Of a DNA stretch of 34,043 nucleotides, positions 16,505 to 22,747 are shown piece after piece. The translations under genes were made by a program, and so were the position numbers. The notes under the pieces are model-generated. The model was not told where the DNA came from, searched no databases, and saw only the letters and a program-made list of their open reading frames with translations. The DNA comes from a virus. The stretch lies in UHGV virus genome UHGV-0081034; one strand, given 5' to 3'. The stretch's first letter is position 1. Every line of letters begins with the position of its first letter.

Positions 16505-17617
16505 TCACGCTTTCTTCGGTTCGTGTTGCATTTCGTGTTGCATGATTTGAGTGAAATGCTCGTTTATCTTGTCAGTAAACTTCTTTTCCTCGGACTCAAT
16601 GGTGCCACGGTACACCTTTTTGAGCACTTTGTCAGACTTCCACCCACCACGTTTCATGATGTACTGATCCGGAATATTAAGCGCATGCATGATGGATGCA
16701 GTGTAGTGACGGAGATCATGATATCGAAACTCTGGAACACCGGCAGAGCGTAGCACCTTCTTGAAGTTCTTGGACAAGTCTTCCGGGTGCATTTTAACAA
16801 GTGGACCACTTTCAATATCATCAAATTTTCTGATTACAAATTCTGGCATAATCACATGTCTGCAACTACTCTGTGTCTTAGGCCCTTTGGTCACGATTCC
16901 TTTTCTACCACGTACACGTGTCTCTCTGATCCGAATAGAGTTTCCGGTGATATCTTCCTTTGTCAGACCGAACACTTCTCCTCTTCGAAGACTTCCAAAC
17001 GCTGCAAGGAGTACGGCCTTTTCCATCTCAGTTCCTTCAATGTACTTGATCAGTTTCTCGATGTCCTCATCAGATGGAACATATCCGTCAAAATCTTTTG
17101 GAGCTGGTAACGTGACTCTAAATATTGTTCCAGGAGAATACATCCCTATGACAGCCGTAAATAGTCCATAAGCGTTCTTTACTGTCTTAGGTGATAACTT
17201 TATTGAGATTGCATTTACCCACGCTTGTACGTCCTCTTGAGACAGCTTACGTAGGCTTATGTTCTCGATTTGCTTTATCTGATTCCTTACGATTGTTTCA
17301 TATCCACGCAATGTGGTTTCAGACAGCACATTCTCTTTTAATTTAATGTAATTAGTGAACGCTTCTTTTACAGTCCAGTTCTCAGGACGTTTCTTCCGGT
17401 CCTTTTCTGCGAGAAACTGTGCAGCCTGTGCTTCAGCTGACTGTTTTCCTCGTTTACCTGGAAGATCACTGGTGAATGATTCATAGATTCTTTTCTGCTT
17501 CTGCTTTTTTGTTTTCGGATCAATGACTGGTTTTCCATCCTTATCCACCATATTTTCATAGTGTGAGAATACCAGACATCTCCATGATCCGGAAGGTAAC
17601 TTCTTAGCTGTTGCCAT
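16505..17617 (-). CDS. int: Tyrosine site-specific integrase
   Basis: 370 aa. C-terminal catalytic region with the HDLRHYTAS / R…H.LRH…Y arrangement. N-terminal arm-binding-type domain. Adjacent to attP. Confidence 0.9.
   Translation of the reverse strand: MATAKKLPSGSWRCLVFSHYENMVDKDGKPVIDPKTKKQKQKRIYESFTSDLPGKRGKQSAEAQAAQFLAEKDRKKRPENWTVKEAFTNYIKLKENVLSETTLRGYETIVRNQIKQIENISLRKLSQEDVQAWVNAISIKLSPKTVKNAYGLFTAVIGMYSPGTIFRVTLPAPKDFDGYVPSDEDIEKLIKYIEGTEMEKAVLLAAFGSLRRGEVFGLTKEDITGNSIRIRETRVRGRKGIVTKGPKTQSSCRHVIMPEFVIRKFDDIESGPLVKMHPEDLSKNFKKVLRSAGVPEFRYHDLRHYTASIMHALNIPDQYIMKRGGWKSDKVLKKVYRGTIESEEKKFTDKINEHFTQIMQHEMQHEPKKA
16520..16543. repeat. Tandem TTCGTGTTGCAT x2 inside the integrase 3' end (encoding MQHEMQHE); candidate P' arm-type sites
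   Basis: Exact copies of the 12-mer seen at 16292-16325. Symmetric placement around the tRNA-like core. Confidence 0.4.
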
Positions 17618-17815: not shown

Positions 17816-18361
17816 TTATTTCAGCAAATCTGCAATACAGATCTTAAGGTCATCATAGATTCCAACAGGAATCTCATCATCAAAAGAATATTGATTGAAG
17901 TCTTCTATATCACCAAAGAGGTAAGTCTGAACAGTCTCTTTCATTGGATTCACGATCCAGTATTCACGAACACCGGCTGTGCGGTATTTGAATAGCTTGG
18001 TAAGGTAATCCATACGCTGACTGCTTGGTGATACGATTTCGATAATGAAATCTGGGGCACCATTGCATCCATGGTCATTAATCCGGTTTGGATCACAGAT
18101 TACGGAGACATCTGGTTCTACATAGTTATGATCATCCTGATTCAGAAAAACAGCAAATGGAGCAGGCAGAACTTCGCAAGGACCTCCATGGGATTTAATA
18201 TAATCCCGGATTGTTGCGGAAAGTTCCATTACAAGTTTCTGATGAAGATAACTCGGTGGAGCCATGTCATAGATCTGACCGTCAATCAGTTCTGCACGCT
18301 GCCCATCAGGAAGAGCGTAGATGTCTTTGATTGTGTAGTTGTTTGATTTTGGTAATGGCAT
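17816..18361 (-). CDS. Uma2-family (DUF820) PD-(D/E)xK putative endonuclease
   Basis: ATG 18361 follows aagga. ~181 aa with the PDFIIEIVSPSS … GVREYWIVNP hallmark of Uma2 proteins. The track start at 18397 lacks an RBS. Confidence 0.65.
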   Translation of the reverse strand: MPLPKSNNYTIKDIYALPDGQRAELIDGQIYDMAPPSYLHQKLVMELSATIRDYIKSHGGPCEVLPAPFAVFLNQDDHNYVEPDVSVICDPNRINDHGCNGAPDFIIEIVSPSSQRMDYLTKLFKYRTAGVREYWIVNPMKETVQTYLFGDIEDFNQYSFDDEIPVGIYDDLKICIADLLK

Positions 18362-18409
18362 GTGTTCACATCCTTTTGTAATATTATAAAGAAACAATTC
18401 ATAAATAGC

Positions 18410-19282
18410 CTATCCAATTAAGTTGTTTTGTGATGCAGTATCAATTTCCATTGGCGGAATTTCAAGATTGGAAAAAAGCAATTCTTTTCCTTGGACATGT
18501 GTATTAACAGAATAATCCAAATAAATATTTTGGCGCTTGCTTTTTTGATAGAGCTTTCGAATTTCTGGATGATCATCGTAGCTCACCAACCAAGGATATG
18601 ATTTATTTTTAATAAATTTGGCTAATCTTATATGCATACTTTTATCATAAGAATAGCGATACAAAGTAGGCCCCTTTTCATAATAAGGAGGATCGACATA
18701 TACAAATGTGTTATAATTTCTTTTATATTTTGTTTTTTCGTTTAAAAAATCAAGAGCATCCATATTGTATATTTCAATTCTGTCGGAGAAACAAGATAAC
18801 TCACGGATACTTTTAATAATTTTTTCCTTGTTAAAGCGACAATCAATTTTGTATTGTGATTCCTGTTTCATTCCTCCGAGTGGATTCGCATTTAATATAC
18901 CAGAAAAACTTGTTCTATTTAGGTACAATCCGGCAAATCCTATTTCTAGCGGAGATTTATTTGTAAGGTATGAAGAATTTCGGTATTGCGAATAATGCAT
19001 CCAATTATCTAACGTAATGTCAACGTTTTCAATTAGAGTTATTAAATTGTTGGTATCATTCATTACTGATAACCAGAAATAATAAATTAAAGGATCTAAT
19101 TCGTTAATTATTGCTTTTGAAATCGTTTTTGATTCAAGTAATGCTAAGGAAACTGCTGCGCTACCAGCATAAGGCTCATATAAGGTGCAATTAGTAAGAT
19201 GTTCTGTTTCAAGTAGTTTTTTTATGTAGGGAACTAATTTTGATTTTGCACCTGGATAACGCAAAGGATTTTTAATTGGCAT
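18410..19282 (-). CDS. dam: DNA adenine (N6) methyltransferase, Dam / D12 class
   Basis: 290 aa. N-terminal LRYPGAKSKL and YEPYAGSAAV (AdoMet) motifs and a DPPY catalytic motif (YVDPPYY). Very AT-rich gene. Confidence 0.8.
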   Translation of the reverse strand: MPIKNPLRYPGAKSKLVPYIKKLLETEHLTNCTLYEPYAGSAAVSLALLESKTISKAIINELDPLIYYFWLSVMNDTNNLITLIENVDITLDNWMHYSQYRNSSYLTNKSPLEIGFAGLYLNRTSFSGILNANPLGGMKQESQYKIDCRFNKEKIIKSIRELSCFSDRIEIYNMDALDFLNEKTKYKRNYNTFVYVDPPYYEKGPTLYRYSYDKSMHIRLAKFIKNKSYPWLVSYDDHPEIRKLYQKSKRQNIYLDYSVNTHVQGKELLFSNLEIPPMEIDTASQNNLIG

Positions 19283-19334
19283 AAAATCACCTCCTAAATT
19301 TTATTATACATAAAAATAATATATTTGGCCAGAA

Positions 19335-20906
19335 TTATTCGAGTATATCCAAAATAGGAATATCATTTTGTAACGCTAATTGATTGAATATTTCAACATA
19401 ATTGTTCAAAAACAGTTGATATTCGGAAGGGCGAGTGAGTTTCCAATAATTATATAACTTGGAATTACCTCTTCCCCAGTATTTTTCTTGTTCTTTGAAC
19501 CATTTTTTGTATTGCTGAGGGTCGGCGTTACGATCAATTAGTGTAGGATAATTTGCAAAACATTTTTTCTTATCATATTCGCCTAACTCAGTATCCCAAA
19601 AAGAATCTGTTTCGTCCAAAGAATAAAGAAACCTGTAAAACATTTCTTCAGGACAAGTAGTGCCAGGAAGAAACATTACATATTTTCCACGATATTGTTT
19701 AATCTTTTTGCAAATTGATTGCTTATTTTTATCACCATCAAGAATCAAGATACTTTCACAAACGGGTTTTAGTTTTACTCGTAATAATTCAAGGTATGAT
19801 TCAGCACCAATAGAACATGGGCTAAAAACAATATTTTTTCTAAAACCACCATTAAGGAGTGACTTAACAAATGATTGCGCTACATCATCTTCGGTAAAAA
19901 TTGTAATTTTAGGTATGACATCTGGAGTACCTTTAACTGAACCAGATAATTCTAAAATTACATCGTCAATAGAAGTAGTAGGCTTATTTTTTACCAAATT
20001 TCCTTCTTTCTTTAAATATACAAGTTTAGTTTCTTTTGGATTGTATTTATCAAAAAAAGTAGCTTTTAACACAGAAGGAGAGTGTGTTGTAAAAATAAAT
20101 TGTATTTTATAATCACCGGCATATTTATAAAGACGCTTAATGAGCCTCATTTGTGACAAAGGATGAAAAGTTGATTCAATTTCATCAATCAGCAGAATTC
20201 CACCTTTATAATCATTTGGATATTTTTGCATTAGGCGTCTAAAGGATAATACAGAAATTAGAATTTTCCCTAAGTTGTCTTGACCAGCAGAAATAGATAG
20301 CGCATCTTGATCATTTGGGTGAATAGATGCAGTATATTTTATTCCAGAATGTATAGTATCAATTTCTATATTATCTGATAGATCTGACATAATGTCTTTA
20401 TACTCCAATGTTAAAAATTTCTTTTCTTCAGGAGTGAGCTGATTTAAGTATTCAAAAGAGTCTTCTTCGCCAATAGGAGAAACTCTTTTTAAGCTTAAAT
20501 AATAAACAGGAACTTGTGGGTATCCGGTTCCAGCACCTTTACCTTCAGTAGACCAAAAGCGAGGAATTGGATCTGATTTATCACGATATATACTATGTGC
20601 TTCAAAATAATCATTTTTGTATATATTAGGATATAAATTTAAACGCCATTTATGCGTTCCAGGAATATCTTTATCTGAAAGTTTAAATTTTTCTGCAAAT
20701 TGTGAACGATATTTGTAATTATCAATGGAACTTTCGCCATACATGGGATTATTTTTATTTATAGAAAAGGTTTGTCCTAAAATACCTAGAGTGGTAGTTT
20801 TCATAGTTCCATTATGACCAACTATTGCGGTTAGTTTTGTACCTAAATCAAAATCTACATTTTCAAGAGCTCTAAACTTATCTATGTGTACGCTTTTAAT
20901 TATCAT
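19335..20906 (-). CDS. OLD-family ATPase-nuclease (N-terminal ABC-type ATPase plus C-terminal Toprim-like domain); class 1 OLD or fused PARIS-like defence protein
   Basis: 523 aa. Walker A-like GHNGTMKTT, Walker B LLIDEIESTFHP, H-loop TTHSP. C-terminal IFTEDD … ILILDGDKN resembles Toprim E / DxD. Very AT-rich, with its own promoter region at 20907-21025. Confidence 0.6.
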   Translation of the reverse strand: MIIKSVHIDKFRALENVDFDLGTKLTAIVGHNGTMKTTTLGILGQTFSINKNNPMYGESSIDNYKYRSQFAEKFKLSDKDIPGTHKWRLNLYPNIYKNDYFEAHSIYRDKSDPIPRFWSTEGKGAGTGYPQVPVYYLSLKRVSPIGEEDSFEYLNQLTPEEKKFLTLEYKDIMSDLSDNIEIDTIHSGIKYTASIHPNDQDALSISAGQDNLGKILISVLSFRRLMQKYPNDYKGGILLIDEIESTFHPLSQMRLIKRLYKYAGDYKIQFIFTTHSPSVLKATFFDKYNPKETKLVYLKKEGNLVKNKPTTSIDDVILELSGSVKGTPDVIPKITIFTEDDVAQSFVKSLLNGGFRKNIVFSPCSIGAESYLELLRVKLKPVCESILILDGDKNKQSICKKIKQYRGKYVMFLPGTTCPEEMFYRFLYSLDETDSFWDTELGEYDKKKCFANYPTLIDRNADPQQYKKWFKEQEKYWGRGNSKLYNYWKLTRPSEYQLFLNNYVEIFNQLALQNDIPILDILE

Positions 20907-21025: not shown

Positions 21026-21472
21026 TTATTTATCAATATTTTTAAATTTCATTATCTTGTTATCATATCCAGCAATTCTTGCAATTTGTGATTTATTTAT
21101 ACCAGGATTCTCATAGATCAGTTCATCTGGTATCAGCAGTTCTGCCGCAAAAGTATTTGCTTCAATCTCCATCTTGGAAGTCAGCAGAAGAGTCTTATTT
21201 CTAATGAAATAACAATTTTCCTTCCGGTGCATAATTGAATGAGCCAGTTCGTGAGCCATGACAAGGGTTCTTTCATGTTCCTCTAAATCTTCATTAAGGA
21301 AGATGCACTTATGATTCTTGAGAAACATATAGCATCCAGCGTTTGATCCAAGCGGACCGGTCTGGACTTCTACATTCAGATATTCTGCAAGCCTAAAAGG
21401 GTTTCTGGTTTCATATTTTTTGACGTAATAAGCAACTAAACGCTTAACATCATGTGCTTTCAATTGCAACAC
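21026..21472 (-). CDS. immA: ImmA/IrrE-family metallopeptidase (anti-repressor protease)
   Basis: 148 aa with an HEXXH motif (AHELAHSIMH). Immediately downstream of, and stop-start adjacent to, an XRE repressor, as in ImmR/ImmA pairs. Confidence 0.8.
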   Translation of the reverse strand: MLQLKAHDVKRLVAYYVKKYETRNPFRLAEYLNVEVQTGPLGSNAGCYMFLKNHKCIFLNEDLEEHERTLVMAHELAHSIMHRKENCYFIRNKTLLLTSKMEIEANTFAAELLIPDELIYENPGINKSQIARIAGYDNKIMKFKNIDK

Positions 21473-21892
21473 CTACTTTTTATTCTTGTTAGGATTGTAT
21501 TTTTCCTTATTGATAGGTTTCAACCGGCGCATCATTAATTCAATTTGTCCCAGAAGCAGTTCTGTGTCTTCTTCCGGAATAGGTTCACCATCGTAGGAGA
21601 GCGGACCATCAGCACCATTCATTAATTTACCACGGAGATTCTCTAAATCCTTTGCAATGTCTCTTTCATCTTTTGGAGTGATTGCATAAGGATCCTCTTT
21701 CTTTTCTTCACCAGTGAAGTATTCGGTTGGAACTCCGAAGTAATCAGCTATTTTCTGCAATTTTTCCATCTTAGGAGTATATTTCCCTTGTTTCCAACTT
21801 GTGAGAGTAGCAGTTGTTACTCCTGTTTCTTTTGATACTCGATAAGCGGTTACATTATTTTTCTTTAGTAATTCTTCAAATTTTTCATACAT
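21473..21892 (-). CDS. immR: XRE-family HTH repressor (ImmR / CI-like)
   Basis: 139 aa. N-terminal HTH_XRE (…VSKETGVTTATLTSWKQGKYTPKMEKLQKIADYFGV…). Divergent from the Cro-like gene. Confidence 0.8.
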   Translation of the reverse strand: MYEKFEELLKKNNVTAYRVSKETGVTTATLTSWKQGKYTPKMEKLQKIADYFGVPTEYFTGEEKKEDPYAITPKDERDIAKDLENLRGKLMNGADGPLSYDGEPIPEEDTELLLGQIELMMRRLKPINKEKYNPNKNKK

Positions 21893-21913
21893 AGTTTTCC
21901 CTTTCTAAAATAA

Positions 21914-22056
21914 CTTAGAAATCTATGCTAATAAATATTGACAAGCTTAGAAAACTATGCTAATATACAAACATAGCTTAGATAACTAAGTTAAAACAAT
22001 ATAAGGTTTCTTAGATAACTTAGATGGTACTTAGATTATATAAGAAACCTTAGATA
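21914..22056. repeat. Operator array: at least six copies of CTTAGA(T/A)A, including the palindrome CTTAGATAACTAAG (21977-21990)
   Basis: Copies at 21914, 21946, 21977, 22010, 22019, 22030 and 22049. They overlap both predicted promoters. Confidence 0.45.
21938..21966 (+). promoter_or_regulatory. Rightward sigma-70-type promoter for the Cro-like gene: TTGACA-17-TAATAT
   Basis: -35 at 21938-21943, -10 at 21961-21966, 17-nt spacer. ~110-nt leader to GTG 22083. Confidence 0.55.
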
Positions 22057-22063
22057 GTGTCAA
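22035..22063 (-). promoter_or_regulatory. Leftward consensus promoter TTGACA-17-TATAAT (minus strand), facing the rightward promoter; candidate repressor promoter
   Basis: Minus-strand -35 at 22063-22058 and -10 at 22040-22035. Transcripts would converge with those from the rightward promoter over ~55 bp. Confidence 0.5.
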
Positions 22064-22082
22064 TATCTAAGGAGGTGTAATA

Positions 22083-22268
22083 GTGTACGAAAAATTCCAA
22101 TTATTATTGGACAAAACGAACAAAACGCCATACCAAGTATCAAAAGATACAGGGATTTCAACAGCAACGTTGTCTAACTGGAAGAATGGCGTATATGTTC
22201 CAAAGGCTGACAAATTGCTTACAATAGCGAAATACTTCGGTGTTCCTATTGAGTATTTCTTGGAGTAG
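22083..22268 (+). CDS. Cro-like XRE HTH protein, paralogous to the N-terminal domain of the repressor
   Basis: 61 aa. MYEKFQLLLDKTNKTPYQVSKDTGISTATLSNWKNGVYVPKADKLLTIAKYFGVPIEYF aligns with repressor residues 1-60 at >50% identity. GTG start after aggagg. Confidence 0.7.
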   Translation: MYEKFQLLLDKTNKTPYQVSKDTGISTATLSNWKNGVYVPKADKLLTIAKYFGVPIEYFLE

Positions 22269-22356
22269 AAGAGCGAGGCATTTCTATCAATAAGTTGGAG
22301 GAGGAAGCGGAATAGGATTAGAGGAAAACAAGTACAAACCGTAGGAGGTGAATAAA

Positions 22357-22524
22357 GTGGAGAAATACATCGAAGCATTAAAGGGAATTTCCTATTTTGA
22401 ATGGATTAAGTTACGAGAAGGTATGGACAATGAATTTAACCGGTTAATCGGTGAATCCAAGAGGAAACTCGAACTCACCGATGTGGAGCGTGTAGGAAAA
22501 ACTATCCGTTCACAATTTGGATAA
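22357..22524 (+). CDS. Small hypothetical protein (55 aa)
   Basis: GTG 22357 sits 7 nt after aggaggtg. Below the ORF-track cutoff. Weak call. Confidence 0.3.
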   Translation: MEKYIEALKGISYFEWIKLREGMDNEFNRLIGESKRKLELTDVERVGKTIRSQFG

Positions 22525-22747
22525 ACATAGGGTTGATTCTCCAATCATTCCCTTTGTAATAAACGTGAACATAATCAAGACCATAAAAGCTATGTTCAAG
22601 TTCTTTATCCTTATTGCATGGAGAATAGATGGGAGCCCCCTCTTCCCACCAGAGATACGGTGATTTTCCGTATTCGCTGATTTTGCTGTCTGGGTCATCG
22701 TTAAGACATACCCACTCACCAGCAAGGCAAGCGTAAACTTTATTCAT
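22502..22747 (-). CDS. Hypothetical protein (81 aa), antisense-oriented within the early region
   Basis: ATG 22747 preceded by aaagaaagggg. The longer track ORF from 22903 has a hydrophobic, RBS-less extension that overlaps the next gene. Confidence 0.35.
   Translation of the reverse strand: MNKVYACLAGEWVCLNDDPDSKISEYGKSPYLWWEEGAPIYSPCNKDKELEHSFYGLDYVHVYYKGNDWRINPMFIQIVNG

Follow-up and report, generated by a model that had tools for sequence, protein, structure and literature searches.

The 34,043-bp window analysed here (the whole stretch of DNA, virus genome UHGV-0081034) is by its gene content the genome of a temperate siphovirus, with genes for a terminase, a P22-like coat protein, a tape measure protein and an amidase endolysin, and a tyrosine integrase gene at 16505-17617 on the minus strand. 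Our subject is the region from 21473 to 22268 and the gene adjoining it on the left. The genes of an ImmR-like immunity repressor (139 aa, 21473-21892, minus strand) and of a Cro-like lytic regulator (61 aa, 22083-22268, plus strand) point away from a 190-bp spacer, an ImmA-like anti-repressor, predicted to be a zinc metalloprotease of the M78/COG2856 type (148 aa, 21026-21472, minus strand), is encoded directly behind the repressor, and to the right of cro come genes for YqaJ, DUF1351 and RecT. We consider it likely that this locus is the immunity (lysis-lysogeny) switch of a temperate siphovirus of Mediterraneibacter (Lachnospiraceae) from the human gut, a grading that applies jointly to the whole explanation of the switch including the mechanism proposed below. 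Mediterraneibacter is suggested as the host because an identical repressor is found on a contig (L161) of a Mediterraneibacter metagenome-assembled genome (MAG) obtained from a Hadza gut metagenome.

The initial annotation had described a repressor with an XRE-type helix-turn-helix (HTH) followed by an HEXXH protease of the ImmA type, and a Cro that is a paralog of the repressor HTH, and both descriptions hold. The repressor matches HTH_3 (E=6.5e-11), with HTH_3, HTH_19 and HTH_26 as its only Pfam content, while the protease matches Peptidase_M78 (E=6.3e-19) and PHROG 87 "metallo-protease" (E=1.7e-25), carries the HEXXH motif as HELAH (H74-E-L-A-H78) and starts with a GTG that directly abuts the stop codon of the repressor gene on the same strand. 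Cro is made only of an HTH (Pfam HTH_19, E=6e-12) and starts with a GTG located 7 nt after a ribosome-binding site (AAGGAGGTG, 22069-22077). It is identical to residues 1-59 of the repressor in 38 of 59 positions (64%, E=6e-27), and both proteins belong to phrog_8, which, like phrog_87, is a common phage family. A 12-nt inverted repeat that spans both start regions (21880-21891 and 22084-22095) was considered as a regulatory element and rejected, as it is simply the paralogous MYEKF coding sequence on opposite strands.

Promoters were sought in the spacer as matches to the sigma-A-type -35 and -10 hexamer consensus, the transcription start (+1) being set 7 nt after each -10. The predicted rightward promoter PR (lytic, serving cro) is TTGACA-17-TAATAT at 21938-21966 on the plus strand, with 10 of 12 consensus positions, its -35 TTGACA at 21938-21943 and a TG-extended -10, TGCTAATAT, at 21958-21966. 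The extension is absent from the initial annotation. Its predicted +1 is at about 21973, leaving a leader of about 110 nt. The predicted leftward promoter PL (lysogenic, serving the repressor and ImmA) is TTGACA-17-TATAAT at 22063-22035 on the minus strand and matches the consensus in all 12 positions. Its -35 (22063-22058) lies 20 bp from the cro start, its -10 is at 22040-22035 and its predicted +1 at about 22028, with a leader of about 135 nt. Each promoter thus adjoins the gene that the other one serves, which makes the leaders long, and by arithmetic from the predicted starts there would be a zone of convergent transcription of about 56 bp (21973-22028), over which the 5' ends of both predicted leaders are complementary. 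The face-to-face pair at these coordinates and a convergence over about 55 bp had been predicted in the initial annotation, and at the sequence level both stand, PR and PL being the only matches of at least 10/12 in the spacer and the geometry recurring in relatives. In mononucleotide shuffles of the spacer, matches of at least 10/12 appeared on both strands in 2% of the trials.

We have compared this arrangement with that of 160 loci from viral contigs and 80 from genomes, retrieved by searching with the repressor and Cro. What stays constant across these relatives is the set of repressor, HEXXH protein and divergent Cro paralogue, and the position of Cro is unchanged in all those examined. 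One abundant relative, P0007, occurs on 334 contigs. In the viral loci the best pair of promoters is face to face in 71 of 71 unique spacers with at least 9/12 matches on both strands, with a median overlap of 62 bp, and this geometry is maintained down to about 42% repressor identity. A PR-like, near-consensus promoter is found at the same position across the family (median 49.5 bp from the repressor ATG), as is a leftward promoter homologous to PL and adjoining cro. When the genome loci and the pooled set were considered two classes appeared, one face to face with overlaps of +41 to +96 bp (the family range, barring two outliers at 25 and 116 bp) and one back to back at -90 to -128 bp, the latter formed mostly by more distant homologues in Oscillospiraceae, Bacillus, Geobacillus and Lentibacillus. 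The recovery of back-to-back cases among distant homologues indicates that the promoter scan is not biased to one geometry and that the face-to-face arrangement is a trait of the clade and not a product of chance. In a strand-symmetric test with 52 spacers dereplicated at less than 70% identity, 26 favoured the face-to-face arrangement in both halves, 8 favoured the back-to-back one and 18 were mixed or tied. The same switch layout is present in the cultured R. gnavus phage phiRgPS_6, and an Enterocloster relative with 48% repressor identity (L191) has the same geometry. Furthermore, among nine close relatives the predicted elements are invariant at 78% of their positions, compared to 55% in the rest of the spacer (p=0.002), including 6 of 6 positions of the PL -10 and 5 of 6 of its -35. 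The start-to-start overlaps of the face-to-face spacers (L001-L240) cluster at 51-57, 61-66, 73-75 and 79-82 bp, which hints weakly that the two promoters are helically phased.

That the real promoters are back to back or placed elsewhere, the two consensus matches being non-functional or having some other role (for example, the leftward element making a short antisense RNA against the cro leader), seems to us unlikely. The calls come from hexamer matching alone, a match of at least 10/12 on one strand is obtained in 12% of the shuffles of this AT-rich spacer and homologous switches with back-to-back promoters do exist. Nevertheless, no back-to-back match of at least 9/12 was found in the spacer, and a scan extended down to 8/12 and to TG-extended -10 elements gave nothing credible there. 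In addition, neither the position nor the near-consensus sequence of the two face-to-face promoters is lost in spacers with less than 70% identity, and no terminator-like site is present from PL to the repressor gene.

The spacer also concentrates the putative operators. The motif CTTAGAWA has six matches in the window, all of them within 21914-22071, compared with 3.3 expected for the whole window and about 0.02 per 190 bp, and 8 of the 16 copies of CTTAGA in the window fall in the spacer, seven on the plus strand at 21914-22054 and one inverted at 22066-22071. The initial annotation had counted six to seven copies of CTTAGA(T/A)A at 21914-22056; the seven plus-strand CTTAGA copies agree with that count, which missed the inverted one. 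Judging from the sequence, the operator is better described as a series of predicted 14-bp CTWAG-N4-CTWWG sites with a spacing of three helical turns, plus extra half-sites. The pattern CTWAGNNNNCTWWG has four sites in the window (0.28 expected), O1 to O4, all of them in the spacer and starting at 21914, 21946, 21977 and 22010, i.e. 32, 31 and 33 bp apart, and no further copy, such as a distal operator for DNA looping, was found elsewhere in the window. O1 (CTTAGAAATCTATG, 21914-21927, plus strand as the other three) is upstream of the PR -35 and in the leader of the leftward transcript. It is a member of the 20-nt repeat family D1, with 11 of 14 positions invariant in the nine close relatives. 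O2 (CTTAGAAAACTATG, 21946-21959; 12 of 14 positions invariant in the same set) is inside the PR spacer, between -35 and -10, where a repeat copy also appears in three relatives with different operator motifs (L038, L044 and L110). O3 (CTTAGATAACTAAG, 21977-21990), at about +5 to +18 of PR, is the best palindrome (13/14) and matches the pattern on both strands, and it occupies the same relative position in other immunity types. O4 (CTTAGATAACTTAG, 22010-22023) is found at about +6 to +19 of PL.

Other candidate sites surround PL. An isolated half-site, CTTAGAT (22030-22036, plus strand), abuts its -10 and is probably weak or dispensable, since it reads CTTTGAT in most close relatives. Within the PL spacer, a degenerate operator (ATAAGAAACCTTAG) with a half-site CTTAGAT covers 22039-22055 on the plus strand (repeats D3 and I1), so that both promoters share a layout with one site in the spacer and another just after the predicted start. 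The inverted CTTAGATA copy (22064-22071, minus strand; repeat I4) overlaps the cro ribosome-binding site and forms, together with 22049-22056, a palindrome CTTAGATA-N7-TATCTAAG centred on the PL -35, the right arm of which does not seem essential, being lost in one relative (L011).

The periodicity is shared by the family. Among 34 dereplicated face-to-face spacers, each offset from 31 to 33 bp showed exact 7-mer direct repeats in 10-13 loci (about 0.9 expected), with a second peak at 63-64 bp in 7-8 loci, a phasing that suggests cooperative binding along one face of the DNA. Unrelated motifs recur in one and the same arrangement around PR, with a site before the -35, one in the spacer and one just after the start. 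The repeated hexamer differs by immunity type (CTTAGA, AGCTAA, ATACTA, TCATAA, GTAGAA, GAAGTA and others) and tracks the sequence of the recognition helix. The recognition helices of repressor and Cro (residues 25-35) are more similar within a locus (0.64) than between loci (0.49; permutation p<1e-4). This covariation of the helices within loci, together with the motif following the helix type, gives indirect support to the prediction that both proteins read the same sites. In all, the face-to-face geometry, the 31-33-bp operator periodicity and the matching repressor and Cro helices recur among more than 100 related loci, even with differing operator sequence.

For the release of repression, the available data support cleavage of the repressor by ImmA as the predicted route. 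The search with Pfam did not find an S24/LexA autocleavage domain in the repressor, residues 60-139 included. The AlphaFold2 model (mean predicted local distance difference test score, pLDDT, of 79.9) has a five-helix XRE HTH (residues 1-60), a linker, a helix (73-91), a loop (92-106) and a second helix (107-131), and in alignment A1 the loop contains invariant G96, P97, G102, I105 and P106 and the C-terminal part is better conserved than the HTH. In ICEBs1 of Bacillus subtilis the tail of ImmR is likewise helix-linker-helix and ImmA cuts the linker at F95-M96 (PMC8960796). All of the 41 distinct repressors with this type of C-terminus have an open reading frame (ORF) of 136-149 aa with an HEXXH motif 0-53 bp downstream, whereas repressors with other C-terminal types pair with other HEXXH proteins. 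It is the lack of S24, the ImmR-like topology of the model and this pairing that argue for cleavage. In close relatives the protease is 84-90% identical and unchanged in position. Altogether 1642 homologues of the repressor were found at E<=1e-5, one of them named "Repressor protein CI". Some relatives (L012 3001-3648 and L013 3001-3648; proteins P0001-P0005) have a 215-aa repressor with two tandem HTH copies before the same C-terminal tail, followed by ImmA.

Induction through an anti-repressor or some other signal, with the M78 protein acting on another substrate, appears to be a slightly less probable alternative than misplaced promoters. Among solved structures the phi106 repressor is the closest relative of ours both in sequence (9sf2, the best match of a PDB sequence search, E=3.9e-5) and in fold, and its structure was determined in complex with the small anti-repressor AimX. 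The relative phiRgPS_6 carries an annotated "DNA-binding anti-repressor". However, the strict coupling of C-terminal type and HEXXH type just described, the conserved inter-helix loop of the ImmR-like model and the abutting genes, which suggest translational coupling of repressor and protease, all favour ImmA as the partner of the repressor, and no arbitrium or Ant-like gene was noticed adjoining the switch in the window.

An alternative of quite low probability is that the HTH/M78 pair is not the master immunity repressor with its protease but a damage-responsive regulator of the CapH/CapP type, controlling adjacent defence-like cargo. PADLOC did match the protease to capP (E=9e-16) and the repressor to capH (E=1e-5), and three defence-like genes lie directly downstream on the same strand, in the interval 17816-20906 between ImmA and the integrase. 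The cluster codes for a Uma2 putative restriction endonuclease (17816-18397, minus strand; Pfam E=2e-31, PADLOC candidate system PDC-S03 E=1e-48), a D12 adenine methylase of the Dam kind (18410-19282, minus strand; PADLOC PD-Lambda-5_B E=1e-94) and an AAA_15 ATPase similar to AriA, PtuA or GajA (19335-20906, minus strand; E about 1e-20). Possibly it is a defence or restriction-modification island that lysogens express from PL. Against a CapH/CapP regulator, the pair occupies the canonical place, with the integrase on one side and the cro and replication genes on the other, the ORFs examined showed no second candidate for a repressor, and the predicted operators overlap the early lytic promoter. 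The content of the cargo slot varies among relatives, with genes that differ in number and size downstream of ImmA, while the repressor, ImmA and Cro are constant. We have therefore set this explanation aside, as the downstream cargo is variable and a stable linkage to a defence operon was not found.

The spacer also contains a perfect 11-bp inverted repeat with its left arm, AAGGTTTCTTA, at 22002-22012 (plus strand; repeat I1) and its right arm at 22041-22051, within the degenerate operator 22039-22055, so that it brackets the PL -10 and predicted start. An equivalent repeat with other sequences (at least 10/11 complementary) is present in 56 of 99 related spacers, compared with 7.9 in shuffles, and it could be read either as two protein sites separated by about four helical turns or as a hairpin of the cro leader. 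The cro leader folds at -27.9 kcal/mol, better than shuffles (z=-3.25), with one hairpin touching the ribosome-binding site, and for the repressor leader the degree of structure is unremarkable (z=-1.5). Since the hairpins coincide with DNA palindromes, leader folding cannot tell whether these act as RNA or as protein sites. A scan of 21400-22700 with Rfam at E<=1 gave two chance matches to miRNA models only (21.6 and 21.3 bits, with a gathering score of 88) and no known RNA family. The least probable of the alternatives, that the repeats and palindromes act mainly as RNA structures of the long leaders (in stability, cro translation or antisense pairing) and not as protein operators, draws on the folding of the cro leader and on the recurrence of the inverted repeat, but fits poorly with repeats that are found at classic operator positions (promoter spacers and +5 to +19), are mostly direct with three-turn phasing, have a motif that tracks the recognition helix and arms that are perfectly complementary and not G-U tolerant, and with the results of Rfam and of the leftward leader.

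With an ImmR/ImmA-type switch with convergent promoters as the preferred explanation, we propose the following working model. In the lysogen, repressor dimers would bind O1 to O3 cooperatively along one face of the DNA and shut PR, while PL would fire through its leader of about 135 nt to express the genes of the repressor and ImmA along with the cargo and integrase genes behind them. Negative autoregulation would arise from repressor occupying O4 and the PL spacer, combined with roadblocks at O1 to O3. Upon induction ImmA would be activated, probably by DNA damage as in ICEBs1, and would cut the repressor in the conserved loop between the two C-terminal helices, opening PR. Cro, with a nearly identical recognition helix, would then bind the same family of sites, preferentially silencing PL and committing the phage to lysis. 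Head-on transcription over the overlap of about 56 bp, possibly with pairing of the complementary 5' leaders, would make both states mutually exclusive, as in coliphage 186.

Several observations weigh against this model. PR and PL are consensus matches with predicted starts, the binding of repressor and Cro and the cleavage of the repressor in this phage are deduced from sequence, and the operator assignments beyond O1 to O4 are degenerate. PL, a 12/12 match here, drops in some relatives to 8-9/12 with a TG extension, which limits what can be said of the relative strengths of the promoters and of the direction or even the existence of interference. Repressor at O1 to O3 would sit in the path of transcription from PL and could throttle its own synthesis beyond what a stable lysogen tolerates. 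As for the proteins, the PDB sequence search with the repressor did not match the ImmR DNA-binding domain at E<=1e-3, and that with ImmA had no match at E<=0.01, IrrE included. The Foldseek matches of the repressor model were weak (best E=0.012), with the phi106 repressor and the IrrE-cleaved DdrO as the nearest folds and P22 c2 among them. These low scores can be explained by the uncertain orientation between the two repressor domains.

The closest parallels come from ImmR/ImmA-like prophages of the same bacterial family. In phi5 and phi12 of Clostridium (Enterocloster) clostridioforme LM41 (CP125626.1) convergent promoters were predicted between the ImmR-like gene and a second HTH gene, and interference like that of 186 was suggested (PMC11318856). 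By their description these prophages resemble our locus: they come from Lachnospiraceae, their ImmA/IrrE metalloprotease gene adjoins that of an HTH repressor and a second HTH gene is divergent. That prediction was made with PhagePromoter for two prophages, without comparative or operator analysis (PMC11318856).

ICEBs1 shows a similar organization, with an XRE repressor devoid of S24 followed by a co-transcribed M78 protease and an integrase on the same strand, and here the repressor and the protease fall in the Pfam families shared with its ImmR and ImmA. The two-helix tail with a linker described for ImmR (PMC8960796) matches the topology predicted by our AlphaFold2 model. ICEBs1 ImmR binds multiple sites in a divergent control region, and multiple operators are predicted here. 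However, the PDB sequence search detected no similarity in sequence beyond the HTH fold, the opposing gene is xis in ICEBs1 and a Cro paralogue here, and PimmR and Pxis are described as divergent while the promoters here are predicted to be convergent.

Coliphage 186 (and P2) also have their lytic and lysogenic promoters, pR and pL, face to face with a short overlap. In 186, CI forms a 14-mer wheel, Apl is excisionase-like and induction depends on the anti-repressor Tum. From what is known of these proteins the regulators found here appear unrelated to 186 CI and Apl, and their Pfam families (HTH_3/XRE and M78) give no indication of homology. The host phylum is different too, and the likeness to 186 is best read as a functional analogy, not as membership. 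The convergent arrangement of 186 causes interference that is relieved by the repressor, the strong pR suppressing the weak pL (PMC3675496). By analogy, PR and PL may interfere with each other as well, but PL matches the consensus in full whereas pL of 186 is weak, and for this reason the interference could go in either direction.

Phages of the 434 and P22 type have, like this one, a Cro homologous to the N-terminal HTH of the repressor, and Cro reads the operators of the repressor with different preferences, as the shared sites predicted here would allow. The ImmR fold has been placed in the "434 Cro family" (PMC8960796). Unlike here, the repressors of these phages carry an S24 autocleavage domain and act on three operators with back-to-back promoters. 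The closest solved relatives are phi105/phi106-type repressors and Deinococcus DdrO (cleaved by IrrE), which have an HTH plus a helical C-terminal domain as in our model. DdrO is inactivated by the M78 protease IrrE, in the way proposed for ImmA here. The identity to the phi106 repressor and DdrO is low (17-23%) and the Foldseek E-values are weak, and control of the phi106 repressor lies with the arbitrium anti-repressor AimX, unlike the cleavage that we propose.

Phages are well known to carry ImmR/ImmA modules. In a literature search, no convergent-promoter switch of a Gram-positive phage turned up that had been characterised by experiment. Our interpretation was made before for related prophages (PMC11318856) and so is not new, and taken by itself the locus is a typical, well-preserved example that brings no new mechanism. 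What the analysis adds is the evidence across many relatives and a refined map of the predicted operators. More tentatively, it is possible that a large clade of Lachnospiraceae gut phages shares a distinct switch with convergent promoters, complementary leaders of 50-80 nt, operators phased every three turns, co-evolving Cro and repressor and induction triggered by the protease, in which interference or antisense pairing would be integral to bistability. Such a switch would be a Gram-positive counterpart of that of 186 and P2, evolved independently from back-to-back ancestors. Cultured phages of R. gnavus and Anaerostipes would belong to this clade, which would comprise dozens of immunity types. 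The human gut is rich in temperate Lachnospiraceae phages, and we know of no experimental study of a Lachnospiraceae phage switch. If the conserved face-to-face layout is real, it offers a testable model of how many gut prophages hold and release lysogeny, with defined predicted operators, a pair of promoters, a loop in which cleavage is likely and two cultured phages of this layout, phiRgPS_6 of R. gnavus ATCC 29149 and AC844P1 of Anaerostipes caccae, and a second, unrelated lineage in which transcriptional interference can be studied as a component of a switch.

When the cultured phages were searched at the DNA level cro alone matched, with 69-76% identity to the Anaerostipes phages AC844P1-3 and to phiRgPS_6. 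In AC844P1 (L242, OP172635.1 16568-16906) the deposited cro annotation is stretched upstream to 112 aa and covers most of the control region. By homology its true start is the codon of the conserved (M)YEKF N-terminus, as read from the sequence, and with this start the spacer is again about 220 bp long and contains the same rightward promoter. Finally, a small minus-strand gene is located within the rightward early operon at 22502-22747. In the 133-aa ORF of this region residues 53-132 alone match PHROG 3240, of unknown function (E=2e-28), and as the match is confined to this part the true start is probably the ATG at 22747. Both phiRgPS_6 (gp25) and AC844P1 have a minus-strand gene at the equivalent place.

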